Part shown: positions 5,017 to 38,124 of the stretch, piece after piece
Numbering within the stretch: the stretch's first letter is position 1
Layout of the letters: every line of letters starts with the position of its first letter
From: Ostreococcus lucimarinus
Lineage: Eukaryota
Direction: 5' to 3' (one strand)
DNA: 64,000 nt
NCBI GenBank assembly: GCA_000092065.1
Contig: CP000596.1
Program-made: the position numbers and the translations under genes
The notes under the pieces: model-generated
Databases searched by the model: none
What the model was told of the DNA's origin: nothing
What the model saw: only the letters and a program-made list of their open reading frames with translations

Positions 5017-6738
5017 TTACACCACTTCTAAAGCTTGCTTGCCCCTTGCGCGCGACTGCTTGTCGATCATTTGGACGCTAGTTGATAATATTTCCTGCGC
5101 ACGCCTCTTTCTCACGTCGTTTCGTCGCTTGATTTGGCGATTCTCGACGGCGATGTACAGCGCTCGTGACGTCGGCACGAGGAAGAAAATGCCCGCGTAC
5201 ACGAGCAAGAGCGGCATGAGGAGTTTGAGCAGTTTGGGGAACAGCTCGAGGATAAGAATCACCAACGGTGGTTCGCCGTAGTCATCGATCGGGACGGTGC
5301 TCGTCGTCGGCGCGGCGTCACGGAATCTTCCCGCACGACGTCCCATCGTTTGTTCGGCTCTTCGTGGAAGTTGACTTTGGCGTGGAGGCTTGAAGTCCAT
5401 ACCACCGGCGGCACGGAAGATGAAAATAAGTGCTACGTTCAAAAATCCCAGGGCGACAACAAGCGGCATCTTCGCACCGCTCTCCCACAGAGGTCGGACT
5501 CGCTCGTAAATTGGCGGCGGCGTCGGAGCCTGAACGCTGCGCGACGGCATCAGTCGCGACGAAGAGGGTTCGACCGCGCGAGCGGTCACTTGCAAAGATG
5601 GGAACACGTATATGAGCTCTCCAGCATCCGAAGCTTCGGCAAATCCACCGAAACGCGTCAAGACCTCGAGCATGTAGCCCTCGTGCATCCTTCGAACGTC
5701 TCGCTCGGCATCCGCCTTCCTTCTGAAAAGTCGTCGCGCGTGCGCGACAAGGTCGAAAACCACGGCAAATAACCCGTTTCGAACTTCGCTATGATCCTCT
5801 TTCGTGAGGAGATACGTGTCTAAAAACGGCGCCACTTGCTCGGCGAACACGCAGCCTTTGTTCACTCGCAAAAGCGCCCCGACAGCGCGCCATCGCCTGG
5901 TTTCCAAATTATCGTTCGGATCACCTCTTCCGAAAACAAACGCGAATATGCTTTCAAAAAATGACAACTCACGATCGCGGTCGAGCCAATCGTCTTCTTC
6001 CTCTTCTTCATCGCCATCAACGCCGTCGCCGCCTCTTCGCGGGCCGACGTTTGTCGGTGGCGGCGCGTTCGCTCGCCCTGCGGGATCCCCACTTCCTCCA
6101 TCGTCACCGCCACCGCCACCGCCACCGTGTCCGCTGCCGCCAACGCGCGGTTTACTCACTGGAACGCCCTCCGCGACGCCATGCGCGCGATCAAACGCGC
6201 GCGCTCGTTCGAATCGCATAACGTCGTTCCAATACGCTAGTTCAATCAAATCGCGCATCCACAGATAGTACCAGAAATCCGCGTTCACCCCTCGTCCGTG
6301 CCCGACGTACGTGGGTAACACCGGCGTCGACCCTCCACCTCCTCCTCGTCCCTGGTGGCCTCGAGAAAGCGCGATGACGACCAACGCGATGACTGCGAGC
6401 GCCGTCAACGCCGCCGAGACGACGAGGAAAGACCCAAACGCGGCCCTCACCGCGCGCATCGTCGTTCGCCACGCCGCCCGACGCGCTCGGCGCGCGCGTT
6501 CGCTCACATCACGGGCTAAGATGGCCGCGCGCACGCGCACGGGGACTACGTAGATGACTTCTCGGGTTTCTTCGTCGACATCGAGATGACCACCGCTCAG
6601 ATGGACGGCAAAGATGACGCGTTGGCGCAGAGCGTCCGCGGAATCATCCAGCGCGGGGCCTTCGGAGAGGAGTAAGTCACCGAGCGTAAACCGCGGGCCG
6701 ACTCTTTCGAGCGCGAGATGGAGCTCGCGGTCGCTCAT
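5017..6738 (-). CDS. Hypothetical membrane protein with Gly-rich tracts.
   Basis: 573-aa ORF with a reverse-strand ATG at 6736-6738. Predicted TM segments near the N-terminus and the C-terminus (LLKLLMPLLLVYAGIFFLV). Poly-Gly runs. No domain recognised. Confidence 0.4.
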   Translation of the reverse strand: MSDRELHLALERVGPRFTLGDLLLSEGPALDDSADALRQRVIFAVHLSGGHLDVDEETREVIYVVPVRVRAAILARDVSERARRARRAAWRTTMRAVRAAFGSFLVVSAALTALAVIALVVIALSRGHQGRGGGGGSTPVLPTYVGHGRGVNADFWYYLWMRDLIELAYWNDVMRFERARAFDRAHGVAEGVPVSKPRVGGSGHGGGGGGGDDGGSGDPAGRANAPPPTNVGPRRGGDGVDGDEEEEEDDWLDRDRELSFFESIFAFVFGRGDPNDNLETRRWRAVGALLRVNKGCVFAEQVAPFLDTYLLTKEDHSEVRNGLFAVVFDLVAHARRLFRRKADAERDVRRMHEGYMLEVLTRFGGFAEASDAGELIYVFPSLQVTARAVEPSSSRLMPSRSVQAPTPPPIYERVRPLWESGAKMPLVVALGFLNVALIFIFRAAGGMDFKPPRQSQLPRRAEQTMGRRAGRFRDAAPTTSTVPIDDYGEPPLVILILELFPKLLKLLMPLLLVYAGIFFLVPTSRALYIAVENRQIKRRNDVRKRRAQEILSTSVQMIDKQSRARGKQALEVV

Positions 6739-31279: not shown

Positions 31280-32839
31280 TCAAGACGCGCGCGCGGGGAG
31301 ACGCTCGAGCTTGGCGAGCGTGTTGAAGGCGGCGACCTGGCTCAAGCCGTCCGGCCACGTCACGGACATGGCGTAGTTTCCGATGACGGACATTTCTATC
31401 GGAGCGATATCGTCCGGGATCGGGGTGCCGTTTAAGAGCCTGTCCGGGGACTCGTCGCTGCCCTTGACGCGAGCGCTCGTGTCGGACATGCGAACGTTTT
31501 TCGCCGTGATCCAAAACGGCTTATCGTCATTCTCCCCGGGAAGTTCGACGCGAAACGCGCCATCATAACCTGGATCGATATCGACGCGCGGCTTCTTTCC
31601 GTTGTTAAGCTTGGCGACCTCTCGAACGACGGTGGCGGCGACGTCTTGGTACCTCGAGCTCGTCTTGCACGCCGGGTCTCGCAACACGAGCGGCCGACCG
31701 GTGTCCCCGCACGCGCTCAACTCGGGCACGATGGGCATTTGCAGCAAGTTTGGCACGCCATATTGCTCACAAATCGCCGCGCCACTGCCCTCGCCGAAGG
31801 GTTTGTGTTTGACGCCGTCGACTTCAAAGTAACTCAGGTTTTCTACGACGCTCACGCACGGCACCGCTAGCTTGGCAAACATGCGCACACCTTTTTCGAC
31901 GTCGATGAAGGCTAACTTTTGCGGCGTTGTCACGACGACCGCAGCGGTGATGGGGACGACTTGGCACAGCGTCAACTGAATATCCCCAGTTCCCGGTGGC
32001 ATGTCGAGAATTAAATAATCCAGCTCGCCCCAATCCGTCGTCGTCAAGAGTTGATTAATCAACCCGCTCACCATCGGTCCGCGCATGATGGCGCTCCCTT
32101 GTCCGGCGAACCCGAACGAGACCACCTTCACTCCCTCGTACTCCACCGGCGTGATCGTTCCCGTGCCTTTATCCATCTCTAACACCGGCGATTCGGGCGA
32201 AATCATCGTCGGCAAGCTCGGTCCGTAGACGTCGGCGTCCAAAATCCCCACCTTTGCCCCCATCATGGCCAGCGTGTACGCCAAGTTCACGCTCGTCGTC
32301 GATTTCCCGACTCCGCCCTTACACGAGCTCACCGCGATGATGTGTCGCACTCTGCGCAATCCCTCAACCGTCTCCGGCGCGTCGTTTCTCGCCGGCTGCG
32401 CCGTCATCGTCACCCGCACGTTCTTCACCCATTCCAACTCCCCGACGAACGCCTTCGCCTGCCGTTCGAATTCCGCCTTCACCGGGCACGCCGGTGTCGT
32501 CAATTCAATCGCAAACAGCACGTTTCCCGCGCTTTCGTCCACGTTCAGCGCTTTGACAAAGCCGCAGTTTACGATGTCCTCGCCAAAGTCTGGGTCGATC
32601 ACCCGTCGCAGCTTTTCCAGCACCGCCGCCTCTTTGCTCCCGTCCGGGGCGCTGTAAATCGCGGGCATGGACGTGGTATCCACGTCCGCGGCGTCCAACG
32701 CGTCGTGACCGTCCACCGCGGCGTGACGCGCGCGCACGGCGGCGCGCGGGCGTCGAGCGGCGTTATCCAAACGCTCGCGCGGCGGCTTCATAGCGCGCGC
32801 TGACGGCGCGAAGACGCGCGCGGCGCCGACGCGAGGCAT
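31280..32839 (-). CDS. HCF101: HCF101-type Mrp/NBP35 Fe-S cluster assembly ATPase with DUF59 and DUF971, plastid-targeted.
   Basis: DUF59 LEKLRRVIDPDFGEDIVNCGFVK. P-loop IIAVSSCKGGVGKSTTSVNLA...ILDADVYGPS. C-terminal DUF971 FRVELPGENDDKPFWITAKNVRMSDT...GNYAMSVTWPDG. N-terminal transit-like leader. ATG at 32837-32839. Confidence 0.8.
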   Translation of the reverse strand: MPRVGAARVFAPSARAMKPPRERLDNAARRPRAAVRARHAAVDGHDALDAADVDTTSMPAIYSAPDGSKEAAVLEKLRRVIDPDFGEDIVNCGFVKALNVDESAGNVLFAIELTTPACPVKAEFERQAKAFVGELEWVKNVRVTMTAQPARNDAPETVEGLRRVRHIIAVSSCKGGVGKSTTSVNLAYTLAMMGAKVGILDADVYGPSLPTMISPESPVLEMDKGTGTITPVEYEGVKVVSFGFAGQGSAIMRGPMVSGLINQLLTTTDWGELDYLILDMPPGTGDIQLTLCQVVPITAAVVVTTPQKLAFIDVEKGVRMFAKLAVPCVSVVENLSYFEVDGVKHKPFGEGSGAAICEQYGVPNLLQMPIVPELSACGDTGRPLVLRDPACKTSSRYQDVAATVVREVAKLNNGKKPRVDIDPGYDGAFRVELPGENDDKPFWITAKNVRMSDTSARVKGSDESPDRLLNGTPIPDDIAPIEMSVIGNYAMSVTWPDGLSQVAAFNTLAKLERLPARAS

Positions 32840-33040: not shown

Positions 33041-33625
33041 TCACCCGCGCCCGCGCCCGCGCCCGCGCGCGCCCCCCCGTCGGCCGAATTCGCCTCGCCG
33101 TCTCGCGCGCAGCGCCTTGTCGACGGCTTTGCTCTCTCGCAGCGCCGCCTCGAGTTTCGCCCCGCCGTGCGCGCGCTTGAACACCCACAAAAAGCACCCC
33201 GCCTTGGTGCGTCGTCGCCAAATCCCGCTCCCGGTCGCGCCCGCCTCGTACTTCGACCCGCCCTCGCGTTCGATTCGAAGCGTCTCTCGCAGCGCGGCGT
33301 CCATCGCGTCGCCGCCGAACGCGCGCGCGAGCCTTCGCATCAGGTGTCGCTTCGGCTCCTCGATCGTCGCCGCGACGCGTTCGGCGCACTTGAAATCTTC
33401 TTCGCGCATCTCGACGCGCGTCGGATCGTCGACGTCGAGCATCGCGTCGTCGTCGCGCGTCGTCGTCGTCGCCGCGCGGCGCGCGTCCCGAGCGTCGCGC
33501 GCCGTCACCTCCCCCTCCTCGACCTCGCGTTCGGCGTCGACCGCGCGCGCGTCGTCCATCGCTTCCATGGCTTCGTAATCGATCAGCGCGTCCTCGTCGT
33601 CGTTCGCGTCGTCGTCGCGCGCCAT
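33041..33625 (-). CDS. Acidic protein with a PHAX-like RNA-binding domain (RNA_GG_bind-like).
   Basis: LRETLRIEREGG...SGIWRRRTKAGCFLWVFK resembles the PHAX RNA-binding domain (ETLRIEAEGG...GRRRRTPGGVFF). Acidic N-terminus and a C-terminal RG box. ATG at 33623-33625. Confidence 0.45.
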   Translation of the reverse strand: MARDDDANDDEDALIDYEAMEAMDDARAVDAEREVEEGEVTARDARDARRAATTTTRDDDAMLDVDDPTRVEMREEDFKCAERVAATIEEPKRHLMRRLARAFGGDAMDAALRETLRIEREGGSKYEAGATGSGIWRRRTKAGCFLWVFKRAHGGAKLEAALRESKAVDKALRARRRGEFGRRGGARGRGRGRG

Positions 33626-33699
33626 GACGGTGCTCGCGCGCGCGAATCGATGTCCCGTTGCGTCACAATCTGCCGCGCGCGCCGTCGCCGTCGCGCGCC
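33626..33699. promoter_or_regulatory. 74-bp head-to-head intergenic region between the PHAX-like (-) and ARF (+) start codons; a minimal bidirectional promoter.
   Basis: Divergent ATGs at 33625 (minus) and 33700 (plus). Confidence 0.35.
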
Positions 33700-34335
33700 A
33701 TGGGCGCGGCGCTGAGCCAGGCGCGGACGCTGTTCGACAAGTACTTCGGCAACGTGGACATGCGCGTCGTCATGCTCGGCCTGGACGCCGCCGGGAAGAC
33801 GACGATCCTGTACAAGCTGCACATCGGCGAGGTCCTGAGCACGGTGCCCACGCTCGGGTTCAACGTCGAGAAGGTGCAGTACAAGAACGTCGTGTTCACG
33901 GTCTGGGACGTCGGCGGACAGGAGAAGCTGCGACCGCTGTGGAGGCATTACTTCAACAACACGGACGGGTTGATCTTCGTGGTGGATTGCCTCGATCGAG
34001 AGCGCGCGAGACGAGCGAAGGAGGAGTTTTACAGCATCGTCAACGACGCGTTCATGCGAAACAGCGCGATATTGATATTCGCGAATAAACAGGACCTGAA
34101 GGGGGCGATGACGACGGCGGAGCTGGTGGAGGCGTTTGAACTGCCGTCGCTGAAGGGACGGAGGTGGCACGTGCAGGCGTCGTGCGCGACGCAAGGGCTG
34201 GGGCTGTACGAGGGACTGGATTGGTTGTCGAGCACGCTGACGAAGATGCGAAGGAATGGGGTGGTGACGAGCGTGGGGAGTAGCGGAGAGCGACACGGGG
34301 CGGGGAGACAGGGACGCTCGGCGCGGTTTACGTAG
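33700..34335 (+). CDS. ARF: ADP-ribosylation factor family GTPase (ARF1-like, with a C-terminal extension).
   Basis: MGAALSQ (Gly2 for myristoylation). [51 protein letters not shown]. About 60% identical to ARF1 over the G domain. Confidence 0.85.
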
Positions 34336-34520: not shown

Positions 34521-36890
34521 CTACTTTTTACGCGCGAGCAGCAGCTTGGCTTCTTCGAGTTCCTCGCGACACTTGCCGCAGCCCTTGGCGGCGTAGCGAC
34601 ACTTCGAGCACCCGAGCTCGGTGCGAGGCGGACGCAACACGCGAGGTCGACCGCGAGCGGGCTTACCGTCCGCCGTGCGCACGGGGACGAGCGTGAGCTC
34701 CGTGACGATTTTCCGTTCGCCCGTGTTGATGTCGATGAACGCCTTCGCCTTTGACTTGGATGGGAACTTGACGTTGACTCCCTTGGCGCTCTTCGTTTGA
34801 ACGCGCGGGGCCGTCTTTGCCTTGGTCTTCGTCGTCTTCTTCGCCGCCACCGCCCTGGTCTTCGGCGTTCCACCGCGAGGTCCGCGTTTTGAGCGCGGCG
34901 TGTCTGGATCGCACGCGCCGCACCCTGTGGATGCCCAACGACACTTGCTGCATCCTTTCCCGACGACCACGAGCGCCATGGAATTGTCCGCGCGAACGCT
35001 CGCCTTCTTCTTTGGCGCCTTGGTGGCTTTCTTCGCCGCGAGTGCCAACTTTTGCGCAGCTGGTCCGCGCGGAAGTCGCGCGGTGCCGGGATCGCATGCG
35101 CCGCACCCGTTCGCGGACCATCTGCACTTGCTGCAACCCTTGGTGCCGTAGACGACGAGCGCCATCGAATTCGATGCGGTGGCTTTCGCCGCGCTCTTCG
35201 TCTTCTTCGTCGCTTTCACCACCGTCGGAGCTTTTGTCTTCTTCTTCGCCGCAGCCGCGCGTGGCCCTGTCGGCGCACGCGGCGTGTCTGGATCGCACGC
35301 GCCGCACCCGTTCGACGCCCATCGACATTTGCTGCATCCTTTCGAGCGCACGAGCGCGAGCGCCATCGAATCGTCCCTCGCGGGCGCTTCGACTCTGGAC
35401 TTTTTCGCCGGTGGCGGACCGTTTTTCACCTTGGGTGGGCGCCCACGGCGCTTTTTTTGTGGCTTCGAAGCTTCTGACTGCGTCGTCGCCGCGTTCAAGT
35501 CGACGACGCCGAGCGGCGATCGCGTCGCCTCGACGACGGGCGCGACGTCCACGGCGACTCGCGCCACCGTGACCACGGGCGTGCTCGCGACGGGCGTTTT
35601 CTCTCGTGGAGGCGGCATGTCATCCTCCGGCTCGCGCGCGTGCTGTAAGTACATCGGCGGCGGCAATTCGACGAGTTGTCGGTTCATGAGCGGATGCCAT
35701 CTCGGTCCCGGCGTGCACGAATCGATGGCGGGCGTCATCGCGTACGGCGTCGGCGCGTACGGCGTCATCGTGAATGGACCCGGCGTCAGCGCTTGCACGC
35801 TCATTGGACTTCTCTGTTCGACTTCTTCGCCTTCGTCGTCGTCTTCTCCGTCGTCCACGTCCGTGCACTGCACGCTCTCCTCTGGGAAACTCGTCGGGCG
35901 CGCGGGCGTGCACCCGCCCATGGGCAGCTCCAAATCGTTTGCTTCGCGGAAATCCACCATCTCCTCGATCGCCTCGTCCGCGCTCCACCGCTCGTTCGCG
36001 TCGACCCAGGTCGTGGACTTCAAAAACTCGTACAACACGCGACATCCCGGCGCGACGCGGTCGTCAAACTTGGCGAGAATCTCCTTGACGCGCGTCTCTT
36101 GACCCGCCGTCGCCGCAATCTTCTTCTCCAACTTCAGCTCCCCGAGCGCTTCTTCCAGCTGACAATCCACCAAAACCTCCACGTCTAAGCACATGGACGC
36201 GGCCCAGACCAAGAACGCCCACATATCGGCTTGAAAGTCGTAATGCGGCCCGCGCGTCTCCGGCGCGATGTACCCGCACGTCCCCGGTCCCTGCAGCGTC
36301 ATCCTCCGCTTCCCAACCTTTGGCAGCCGCACCGCGGTCCCCCAATCCGTGAATCCGATCGTCACCTTCGTCACCGTCCCGAACGCGTTCCTCAGCGCGC
36401 TCCGCACCAACAAATTCTTCGCCTTCAAATCCCTCCACACCACGCGCGCGCCCTTCAGCGCCTCCAGTCCCTCCGCCACCTGCAAGAACAAATCCAACTT
36501 CACCCGCTCGCTCAGCGCGCGTCCGCTCGCCCGCTCCCGCGTCACGAAATCCTCCAAGCATCCGTCCTCGCAGAGTTCGCTCAGCACCGCCAGATACTTC
36601 TTCCCGTCGCTCGGCCGCGTCGTCGCCGCGCACCCGTGCACCTTGACCGCGCACCGCGGCAAATCGCTCACCGTCGCCACCTCGCTCACCACCAGCGATT
36701 CCTTGTTCGAGTCCACCACGCGCGCGCACACGATTTCGTTTCGAAACCGCGCGGCGTACGCGGTGCAGAACCCGCCCTCGCCGAGGACGCGCGCGTAATC
36801 CACCTCCACCTCGGGCTCGGCGAACTGCTTCATGTCCGGGCGGTGCGCCGCGATCGCGCGCAGGCACCGCGCGCACTCGTCGGCGTTCAT
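34521..36890 (-). CDS. Protein kinase with atypical catalytic motifs fused to four C-terminal Cys4 (CxxC-x7-CxxC) modules separated by Lys/Ala-rich H1-like linkers.
   Basis: Kinase region: LGEGGFCTAY, WRDLKAKNLL, DWG, GTCGYIAPE. Then an acidic linker (EDDDEGEEVEQ). Then three near-identical repeats (MALVVYGTKGCSKCRWSANGCGACDPxTxR...AAKKxTKAPxK) plus a fourth ELGCSKCRYAAKGCGKCRE. ATG at 36888-36890. Confidence 0.7.
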   Translation of the reverse strand: MNADECARCLRAIAAHRPDMKQFAEPEVEVDYARVLGEGGFCTAYAARFRNEIVCARVVDSNKESLVVSEVATVSDLPRCAVKVHGCAATTRPSDGKKYLAVLSELCEDGCLEDFVTRERASGRALSERVKLDLFLQVAEGLEALKGARVVWRDLKAKNLLVRSALRNAFGTVTKVTIGFTDWGTAVRLPKVGKRRMTLQGPGTCGYIAPETRGPHYDFQADMWAFLVWAASMCLDVEVLVDCQLEEALGELKLEKKIAATAGQETRVKEILAKFDDRVAPGCRVLYEFLKSTTWVDANERWSADEAIEEMVDFREANDLELPMGGCTPARPTSFPEESVQCTDVDDGEDDDEGEEVEQRSPMSVQALTPGPFTMTPYAPTPYAMTPAIDSCTPGPRWHPLMNRQLVELPPPMYLQHAREPEDDMPPPREKTPVASTPVVTVARVAVDVAPVVEATRSPLGVVDLNAATTQSEASKPQKKRRGRPPKVKNGPPPAKKSRVEAPARDDSMALALVRSKGCSKCRWASNGCGACDPDTPRAPTGPRAAAAKKKTKAPTVVKATKKTKSAAKATASNSMALVVYGTKGCSKCRWSANGCGACDPGTARLPRGPAAQKLALAAKKATKAPKKKASVRADNSMALVVVGKGCSKCRWASTGCGACDPDTPRSKRGPRGGTPKTRAVAAKKTTKTKAKTAPRVQTKSAKGVNVKFPSKSKAKAFIDINTGERKIVTELTLVPVRTADGKPARGRPRVLRPPRTELGCSKCRYAAKGCGKCREELEEAKLLLARKK
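34540..35420. repeat. About 3 tandem copies of a ~180-bp coding repeat within the kinase gene 3' half (each copy encodes one Cys4 module plus a KA-rich linker); a fourth degenerate copy lies near 34560-34620.
   Basis: Protein-level repeats recur on both strands' translations (GSHAPHPFD...HLLHPF on plus; GCSKCRW...GCGACDP on minus). Confidence 0.55.
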
Positions 36891-37230: not shown

Positions 37231-38124
37231 ATGCTCGCGTCCACCGTCTCCGCGCGCGGCGCCGCGCCGTCGCCGCGCGGCGCGAGCGCGCGCGCGGGAC
37301 CGGGACCGCGCGCGGGCGCGGCGACGACGACGCGACGCGCGGCGACGGCGAGCGCGCGCGCGACGCTCGGAAACTACGGCGGATTCGTCGATGGGAATAA
37401 ACTCGCGCGCGGGCTGGCGCGAGGCGACGGACGACGACGCGCGGCGACGTTCGCGGAGCGCGCGGGCGGGGCGGTGCGCGCGCCGAGGACGCGAGGCGGA
37501 CGCGCGACGAAGACGATGATGCCGATCGGTGTCCCGCGCGTGCCGTACAAGACGCCGAACGAGAACATGTGGCAGTGGGTTGATATTTGGAATTGCTTGT
37601 ACCGAGAGCGGATCATCTGGATCGGGCAGACGATCGACGAGGAACTCGGGAACCAACTCGTGGCGACGATGTTGTTCCTGGACAGCGCGGATCGAAACAA
37701 GCCGATGTACCTGTACATCAACAGCGAGGGGGGGCAGATCGTGCCCACGATGGCGATCCTGGACACCATGAAGCATCTGAACGCCGAGGTCGGGACGGTG
37801 GGGTTCGGAAGCGCGCGCGCGATGGGCGGTTTACTCTTGGCGAGCGGGGCCAAGGGCAAGCGCGCGGCGCTCCCGAACACGTGCATCATGCTTCATCATC
37901 CCTCCGGCGTCGCCCGCGGTTCGGCTTCGGACGTTCAAAACGAGGGTAAAGAGCTCATGCGCATCCGCGGTCAGATCAACAAGAAGATCAGCGACATCAC
38001 CGGTCGTCCCGTCGAGCAAGTGTCCGAGGAGATTCGTCGCGACAAGCACTTCACCCCCGAAGCCGCGCTCGATTACGGCATCATCGACAAGATTCTCTAC
38101 CGTCCGCGCGCGGGCGCGAGATGA
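37231..38124 (+). CDS. Clp protease proteolytic-subunit homolog lacking the catalytic Ser (ClpR-like), plastid-targeted.
   Basis: ClpP fold YLYINSEGGQIVPTMAILDTM...TVGFGSARAMGGLLLASG. The position of the Ser in GQAASMG is Ala here. His retained in IMLHHPSG. The 90-aa N-terminal leader is R/A-rich. Confidence 0.75.
   Translation: MLASTVSARGAAPSPRGASARAGPGPRAGAATTTRRAATASARATLGNYGGFVDGNKLARGLARGDGRRRAATFAERAGGAVRAPRTRGGRATKTMMPIGVPRVPYKTPNENMWQWVDIWNCLYRERIIWIGQTIDEELGNQLVATMLFLDSADRNKPMYLYINSEGGQIVPTMAILDTMKHLNAEVGTVGFGSARAMGGLLLASGAKGKRAALPNTCIMLHHPSGVARGSASDVQNEGKELMRIRGQINKKISDITGRPVEQVSEEIRRDKHFTPEAALDYGIIDKILYRPRAGAR

Follow-up and report, generated by a model that had tools for sequence, protein, structure and literature searches.

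We analyzed a 64,000-nucleotide stretch of contig CP000596.1 from Ostreococcus lucimarinus CCE9901 (the window, throughout), and here describe a minus-strand gene at positions 34521–36890 whose 789-amino-acid (aa) product joins a protein-kinase-like head to a long basic tail bearing four copies of a small four-cysteine (C4) module. With a probability of roughly 0.6, we read this product as a Mamiellales-conserved nuclear protein whose kinase-like head is held on chromatin by its multivalent basic tail, in which the modules would act as zinc knuckles. The module is not peculiar to this protein: its repeats are far beyond chance, it is widespread in algae and in viral (IMG/VR) contigs, and its CX2C-X6-CX2C family appears to be absent from Pfam and PDB, and hence uncatalogued there.

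The gene forms a single uninterrupted open reading frame (ORF) of 2,370 nt, 789 codons plus a stop, present in the ORF list and recovered by exact-sequence look-up, which returned an identical product in XP_001422011.1 / UniProt A4S969 (named 'predicted protein' by NCBI and 'Protein kinase domain-containing protein' by UniRef). Pkinase is the sole Pfam domain recognised in the protein (PF00069, E 7e-20, 71.9 bits against a gathering cutoff of 31.7; aa 33–309, 35964–36794; all features of the gene given below are likewise on the minus strand), an assignment also reached through PDB kinase matches and alignment with CDK2. An earlier interpretation drawn from the letters of the window (hereafter the sequence-only reading) had placed a kinase and Cys4 repeats together in one 789-aa frame, and that description stands.

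The same fusion of kinase and module occurs in O. tauri (XP_022840457, 779 aa), in further Ostreococcus clades, in a Bathycoccus-like protein (P0029, 884 aa) and in Micromonas-like proteins (P0044, P0052 and P0041), with the Micromonas-like orthologue comprising 757 aa plus upstream exons. The O. tauri, Bathycoccus-like and Micromonas-like orthologues all carry AT-hooks and at least two C4 units. The fusion also recurs in independent O. tauri assemblies and in metagenome contigs of up to 59 kb, metagenome gene calls of 175–593 aa being contig-truncated fragments, while a first homologue search with the whole tail as query had returned three close relatives only. The gene order kinase–Arf–ClpP is kept in other Mamiellales loci (L001 and L004). 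As a separate observation, the Micromonas-like orthologues (P0044, at L004:4001-6274(+), P0052 and P0041) carry an extra conserved insert, RVRKWF...G.V......C.VRYDDGDEEDL, between the kinase domain and the modules; a by-eye likeness of this insert to Tudor/Agenet domains found no support in a PDB sequence search, where the best match had an E-value of 0.77.

Between head and tail lies a middle region (aa 310–478, 35457–35963) in which an acidic stretch is followed by a Thr-Pro-rich conserved segment, TPGPFTMTPYAPTPYAMTPAIDSCTPGPRWHPLMNRQLVELPPP. This region, which is kept in P0019 and P0236, is probably disordered, and its count of S/T-P pairs makes proline-directed phosphosites possible. The tail then opens with a first AT-hook within a basic patch resembling a nuclear localisation signal (KKRRGRPPKVKN, aa 479–490, 35421–35456), and continues through C4 unit 1 (DDSMALALVRSKGCSKCRWASNGCGACDPDTPRAPTGP, aa 506–543, 35262–35375), a Lys/Ala/Thr-rich linker 1 free of acidic residues (aa 544–572, 35175–35261; 31% K, 34% A), unit 2 (SNSMALVVYGTKGCSKCRWSANGCGACDPGTARLPRGP, aa 573–610, 35061–35174), a Lys/Ala-rich linker 2 (aa 611–634, 34989–35060; 29% K, 38% A) and unit 3 (DNSMALVVVGKGCSKCRWASTGCGACDPDTPRSKRGP, aa 635–671, 34878–34988). 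Linker 3 (aa 672–742, 34665–34877) begins as a basic K/T/A tract and passes into a segment, KGVNVKFP...IDINTGE..VTELTLVPVR, that is kept in P0001, P0002 and P0236. A second AT-hook (KPARGRPRVL, aa 743–752, 34635–34664) stands directly upstream of the last unit, unit 4 (TELGCSKCRYAAKGCGKCREELEEAKLLLARKK / TELGCSKCRYAAKGCGKCRE, aa 757–789, 34524–34622), which has the canonical family form 'LGCSKCRY..GC..CR'.

The cores of the first three units are GCSKCRWASNGCGACDP (aa 518), GCSKCRWSANGCGACDP (aa 585) and GCSKCRWASTGCGACDP (aa 646), and the fourth, GCSKCRYAAKGCGKCRE, starts at aa 760, with the C-terminal unit summarised as LGCSKCRYAAKGCGKCR. All four fit G-C-x-[KR]-C-R-[YWFH]-[SA]-x-x-G-C-x-x-C with invariant spacing, and units 1–3 share the longer form (D/N)(D/N)SMAL(A/V)(L/V)..(K)GCSKCRW(AS/SA)(N/T)GCGACDP(D/G)T.R...GP, including a conserved SMAL(V/A) motif ahead of each core that had previously been overlooked. 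The three repeated copies and the fourth are thus where the sequence-only reading had put them, as is the linker it quoted (AAAKKKTKAPTVVKATKKTKSAAKATA), while several of its particulars need correction: the copies are not near-identical at the DNA level (70–78%), the spacer between the Cys pairs is 6 residues (C-SK-C-RWASNG-C-GA-C) and not 7, and the Asn said to be invariant is Thr in unit 3.

Also overlooked were the two AT-hooks, KKRRGRPPKVK (aa 479–489) and KPARGRPRVLR (aa 743–753), found by regular expression. Both have an R-G-R-P core with basic flanks and both are kept in orthologues, where the second reads RGRGRPR(V/I)LRPPRT(E/D)LGC; we predict them to bind DNA, and the bipartite basic patch together with the AT-hooks suggests that the 789-aa protein is nuclear. 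The linkers, pooled, contain 28% K, 29% A, 15% T and 0% D/E. Their acid-free K/A/T composition and the accompanying RGRP hooks liken the tail to HMGA-type AT-hook tethers and to the histone H1 C-terminal domain, so that the earlier description of the linkers as H1-like holds for composition. It does not extend further, as the linkers are less dense in Lys and Pro (28% K and 5% P, where an H1.4 tail has ~41% and 13%), no linker-histone globular winged-helix domain was found in the protein (Pfam, E<=1), and neither HMGA nor H1 has a counterpart of the C4 units.

We next turn to the module as a family. Using a profile of the unit built from 15 sequences in an exhaustive search of 1.84 billion representative sequences, we identified 453 protein clusters at E<=1e-3, 14 of them at E<=1e-10. 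A consensus built from 194 instances in the best 150 of the 453 matches reads (L/F)-G-C-S-K-C-R-(Y/W/F/H)-(S/A)-x-x-G-C-x-x-C-(R/N/K), within which G-C-x-x-C-x5-G-C-x-x-C is invariant and K/R at +2, R at +4 and an aromatic residue at +5 are nearly so. The 16-residue core is 26.5% K+R and 0.8% D+E, with flanks enriched in K, R, A and P. Modules lie preferentially near protein termini, with one or two copies in most proteins; one 1635-aa protein without Pfam domains (P0026) has eight. Among the named sources are Ostreococcus, a trebouxiophyte (Symbiochloris irregularis), MMETSP transcripts and the transcriptome of a dinoflagellate, 'Dinoflagellata sp. MGD'. Word-indexed homologue searches with short profiles, to which that method is ill-suited, returned five tiny matches and then none. 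When prokaryote genomes (596 Gb) were scanned with a strict degenerate DNA pattern for the motif, it matched three times against ~1 expected, which is chance level, and no match had a credible reading frame, two being broken by stop codons and one lying in a Cys-rich low-complexity stretch. We also noted a separate family (P0053, P0068, P0094, P0126, P0144 and P0155) with a conserved ~300-aa N-terminal region lacking Pfam matches, a Lys/Ala-rich tail and a C-terminal module ending ...GC.QCRDP.F.G.R(W/Y).

The domains that accompany the module elsewhere point to DNA or chromatin, with an MBD4-type glycosylase and a viral histone H4 as particularly informative cases. Algal CDC6 homologues carry two to four modules in their N-terminal region (P0042, 900 aa, with AAA+ and a Cdc6_C winged helix; P0030, 776 aa, with AAA+), an arrangement analogous to the AT-hook array of S. 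pombe Orc4, which has nine AT-hooks. Other partners include tandem BRCT (P0164), BRCT with BAH (P0074), the CHD1 helix-turn-helix (HTH) domain (P0162 and P0120), RING (P0063), SAP, Ulp1 and DnaJ. In an algal MBD4-type glycosylase family the module stands at the extreme N-terminus (MxxxLGCSKCRYSxRGCxRCRDPAF...), as in P0159 (L010:4001-6059(+), on a Logan SRR5947238 contig), whose ORF runs into the first part of the glycosylase domain (E 1e-12 to PDB 1ngn) before it ends; that domain is covered by three tblastn segments, one inside the ORF (5264-5395) and two exon-like ones downstream (5596-5748 and 5919-6059). The layout resembles that of MBD4 in having an N-terminal DNA-targeting module, a disordered linker and a glycosylase domain, and by this comparison the C4 knuckle takes the place of the methyl-CpG-binding domain (MBD) of animal MBD4; the likeness concerns a relative of the module and not the window gene. 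P0073, P0112 and P0145 resemble truncated models of this same glycosylase family.

Two viral contigs provide a further context. IMGVR_UViG_3300046163_000093 (L005:1054-1488(+)) and IMGVR_UViG_3300033183_000520 (L006:6568-7023(+)) each encode a complete histone H4 (E 1.8e-48 to PDB H4 over aa 45-143) with an N-terminal extension of ~45 aa, in which one module (…GCSKCRFRSNGCQACNPGFVPIGRGRGKGGKGLGKG…) directly abuts the GRGKGGKGLGKGG tail. Adjoining genes encode a DnaJ-domain protein, an RNase_T exonuclease and DUF5824/DUF5754 proteins, and from the latter the contigs probably belong to giant viruses. As read from these domain matches, the recognisable contexts of the module are nuclear DNA transactions, and the AT-hooks of the tail together with the CDC6, BRCT/BAH, CHD1-HTH, MBD4-type and viral H4 contexts strongly suggest the DNA or chromatin role that the sequence-only reading had put forward for the array.

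Comparison with catalogued domains sets the module apart from the CXXC, RanBP2/NZF and CCHC zinc-finger families, for the first two as that reading had proposed. No Pfam model matched the module in the 789-aa protein, in 89 longer hits or in isolated units at an E-value limit of 10, a limit at which the CXXC, RanBP2 and CCHC models also went unreported for isolated units. PDB sequences matched neither the tail (phmmer) nor a 104-sequence profile (hmmsearch), and full-text literature searches returned nothing relevant on the core peptide or the spacing formula, nor on an Ostreococcus AT-hook kinase. The CXXC finger (PF02008; DNMT1, MLL1, CFP1, KDM2A/B, TET, MBD1) is similar in being small and basic with Gly-flanked CxxC knuckles, and it binds CpG DNA in chromatin and DNA-methylation proteins, an MBD-family member among them. 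It differs in having eight Cys in two CGxCxxC clusters, two zinc ions, a KFGG motif and ~45-50 residues, where the module has four Cys per unit in the pattern CX2C-X6-CX2C over about 17 residues, and kinship was rejected by hhalign against a CXXC alignment (1.5% probability). The CCHC knuckle (PF00098) and the RanBP2/NZF finger (PF00641) are likewise minimal, single-zinc, nucleic-acid-binding and often repeated with basic linkers, and the CCHC ligand span of 14 residues equals that of the module. The units lack the His ligand and the spacing of CX2CX4HX4C, however, and they depart from W-x-C-x2-C-x3-N-x6-C-x2-C of RanBP2/NZF in their spacer (6 residues, against 10) and in the position of the Trp, which follows the first Cys pair in the units and precedes it in RanBP2/NZF. 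AlphaFold2, given a 104-sequence alignment, produced a model compatible with a small ordered knot (core predicted local distance difference test (pLDDT) score 81-84, mean 76); with a 10-sequence alignment the model was unusable (pLDDT 56).

Based on these observations, we propose the following arrangement. The two AT-hooks would bind the minor groove of AT-rich DNA, and the Lys/Ala/Thr linkers would, like H1 tails, make non-specific electrostatic contacts with DNA. Each 17-residue module, (L/K)GCSKCR(Y/W)(S/A)xxGCxxC, most likely folds around one Zn2+ ion through its two G-C-x-x-C knuckles, given the invariant Cys/Gly pattern and the moderate AlphaFold2 confidence. The folded unit would present its Lys/Arg side chains and aromatic residue as a strongly basic surface to DNA or nucleosomes, a contact suggested by charge and by domain context. 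Four units, two AT-hooks and H1-like linkers could then give multivalent, avidity-based retention on chromatin, where the head may scaffold partners, if it is a pseudokinase, or phosphorylate nearby substrates. Across its family, the module would serve as a portable DNA- or chromatin-tethering element.

The array that carries this proposed retention does not look new. The ~180-bp tandem array of the sequence-only reading is present with measured periods of 201 and 183 bp, and Tandem Repeats Finder did not detect it. Units are 70–78% identical in nucleotide sequence, and Nei-Gojobori-type estimates between them give a synonymous divergence (dS) of 0.8-1.3, near saturation of synonymous sites, a nonsynonymous divergence (dN) of 0.14-0.25 and dN/dS of 0.15-0.25. 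These dS and dN values point to an old duplication with units under purifying selection. The 3+1 layout is shared by O. tauri, in which units 1 and 3 each match best the O. lucimarinus unit at the same position; elsewhere in Ostreococcus there are clades with 1+1 units (P0002/P0019) or 2+1 units (P0001), so copy number differs among clades. Unit 4 has orthologues in the various Ostreococcus clades, and its Bathycoccus-like counterpart is degenerate. By these estimates the array in the O. lucimarinus genome is not recent, and the recent expansion claimed for it is unsupported because of the modest identity, the failure of Tandem Repeats Finder to see the array and a dS of about 1, with the 3+1 units of O. 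tauri agreeing.

What the tail would carry is a head of uncertain catalytic status. Its nearest PDB kinases (STK33, LRRK2, ULK1/2 and PKR) are only distant, with E around 1e-10. The kinase fold claimed by the sequence-only reading is present, while the canonical lysine is not: Arg57, in the motif VCARVVD (codon 36720–36722), aligns with CDK2 K33, the invariant β3 (VAIK) lysine. The VCARVVD heptapeptide also occurs in O. tauri, in the Bathycoccus-like P0029 and in the second exon of the Micromonas-like locus L004, and the change of β3 Lys to Arg is seen in 4/4 lineages examined, with the HRD-Asp, DFG-Asp, αC-Glu and APE positions retained. By the usual criterion, a kinase domain is a predicted pseudokinase if any one of the VAIK-Lys, HRD-Asp and DFG-Asp is absent, and the head formally falls in this class because its β3 lysine is Arg57. 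Exchanging the β3 Lys for Arg is the classical way to make a kinase inactive, and KSR pseudokinases have Arg there naturally. KSR1/2 and pseudokinases lacking the VAIK-Lys resemble the head in combining a natural Arg at this position with a preserved fold and catalytic-loop motifs, which makes a scaffold function plausible for the 789-aa protein, although sequence kinship between KSR1/2 and this protein is limited to the kinase fold. The head may therefore be a pseudokinase or scaffold and not an enzyme; more broadly, it is probably either an ATP-binding pseudokinase/scaffold or a weak atypical kinase acting locally on chromatin substrates.

A serious minority possibility is that the head has full Ser/Thr kinase activity, with the part of the β3 lysine taken by Arg57 or another residue, and that the tail delivers it to chromatin to phosphorylate histones or replication and repair factors in the manner of Haspin, VRK1 and MUT9/MLK. 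This alternative concerns the head only and is compatible with the proposed tail. The remaining catalytic signatures are intact in the CDK2 alignment (αC Glu70, W-R-D154-L-K-A-K-N159 with its RD154, K156 and N159, D182-W-G and A-P-E), D154 and D182 are invariant in alignment with CDK2 and PKA, with WRD standing for HRD and DWG for DFG, and the domain is so strictly conserved across Mamiellales that an enzymatic constraint would fit. WNK kinases, moreover, have lost the canonical Lys, a loss that does not necessarily abolish activity. Yet the glycine-loop position that supplies the alternative lysine in WNK is Cys42 in this protein, and the substitution at Arg57 is the very one that inactivates kinases classically and is natural in KSR.

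A bolder proposal, which we offer only tentatively and consider rather doubtful, would make the LGCSKCR-type knuckle a domain not described before, one that reads DNA in a zinc-dependent way in green-lineage algae and in their giant viruses. It would replace the MBD in algal MBD4-type glycosylases and target CDC6 to DNA, and giant viruses would have attached it to the H4 tail. On this view the Ostreococcus protein is a chromatin pseudokinase guided by a sequence or a mark, and the feature recognised may be specific, such as CpG, its methylation state or linker DNA. Mamiellales chromatin is densely packed and linker-methylated.

Several points weigh against the proposal of a chromatin-held head. 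Its zinc and DNA binding are derived wholly from Cys spacing, charge and guilt by association; the AlphaFold2 model is of moderate confidence (mean pLDDT 76), with no secondary structure and no structural neighbours found; only about 15 of the 89 longer hits have any Pfam domain, making the sample of contexts small; units 1-3 end in an acidic 'CDP(D/G)' where the family consensus ends in a basic 'CR'; there are small C4 fingers (NZF/RanBP2, for example) whose ligand is ubiquitin or RNA and not DNA; and, for the head, an Arg at β3 is no proof of inactivity.

Some of these points favor a different reading of the modules, in which they bind a protein partner or modification (a histone surface, ubiquitin or SUMO) or RNA, leaving DNA contact to the AT-hooks and basic linkers. 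We consider this unlikely. Besides the ubiquitin and single-stranded RNA binding of NZF/RanBP2 fingers, it draws on the co-occurrence of the module with RING, the SUMO protease Ulp1 and BRCT, domains of ubiquitin, SUMO and phospho signalling, and on the weakly basic character of units 1-3, whose net charge is only +1 to +2 each. Against it, the family core is extremely basic and almost free of acidic residues, the module stands where the DNA-binding MBD sits in MBD4-type glycosylases, in the viral proteins it directly adjoins the H4 tail, which lies close to DNA, and CDC6 N-termini bear several copies of it, much like the AT-hooks of S. pombe Orc4. The RanBP2/NZF Pfam model, moreover, goes unreported for the unit even at the permissive E-value limit of 10.

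It is highly improbable that the Cys clusters are redox-active disulfide or metal-sensing (Fe-S or Cu) motifs, or drifting low-complexity repeats. The GCxxC half of the module does give weak matches to a BFD-like [2Fe-2S] domain, but these are far under threshold (E 0.04-0.7, 11-15 bits against a cutoff of 26) and cover one CxxC only, and we rejected this identity as trivial GCxxC similarity. All 194 instances keep the four Cys and two Gly at the same spacing, the units are under purifying selection, the contexts are nuclear, and a drifting repeat would not stay so constant across distant algal lineages and viral contigs. Finally, that the repeats belong to a gene of their own, or were joined to the kinase in silico by an assembly or annotation artefact, has next to no chance given the continuous ORF and is rejected because the fusion recurs in independent assemblies, metagenome contigs and Bathycoccus-like and Micromonas-like orthologues with the kinase–Arf–ClpP neighbourhood preserved, in keeping with the sequence-only reading of repeats and kinase as one gene.

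In the window, the kinase-like gene is flanked by an Arf GTPase gene (33658-34335(+)) and a ClpP protease gene with a transit-peptide-like N-terminus (37231-38124(+)), with a Mrp/NBP35-type P-loop ATPase gene, HCF101-like by eye, further out (31280-32839(-)). Between the HCF101-like and Arf genes lies a 194-aa ORF (33041-33625(-)) that is strongly acidic at its N-terminus and basic and RG-rich at its C-terminus; it may be a shadow ORF given the GC-rich DNA.

Small zinc modules on chromatin proteins and (pseudo)kinases with targeting tails are both kinds of arrangement already known, and the window gene would add a lineage-restricted chromatin (pseudo)kinase to them. Of wider interest is the module family, with its striking fusions to CDC6, an MBD4-type glycosylase and viral H4. 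Should the module prove to be a true Zn-dependent DNA or chromatin binder, it would represent a new compact domain family for the chromatin toolkit, hundreds of 'hypothetical' algal and giant-virus proteins would gain an annotation, and it would become clear how CDC6 and MBD4-like glycosylases are targeted in algae, where they lack the domains that serve this purpose in animals and yeast. A giant-virus strategy of H4 tail modification would also be revealed. Ostreococcus, a model picoeukaryote with extremely compact chromatin, would then have a conserved chromatin-anchored (pseudo)kinase accessible to gene targeting in O. tauri.

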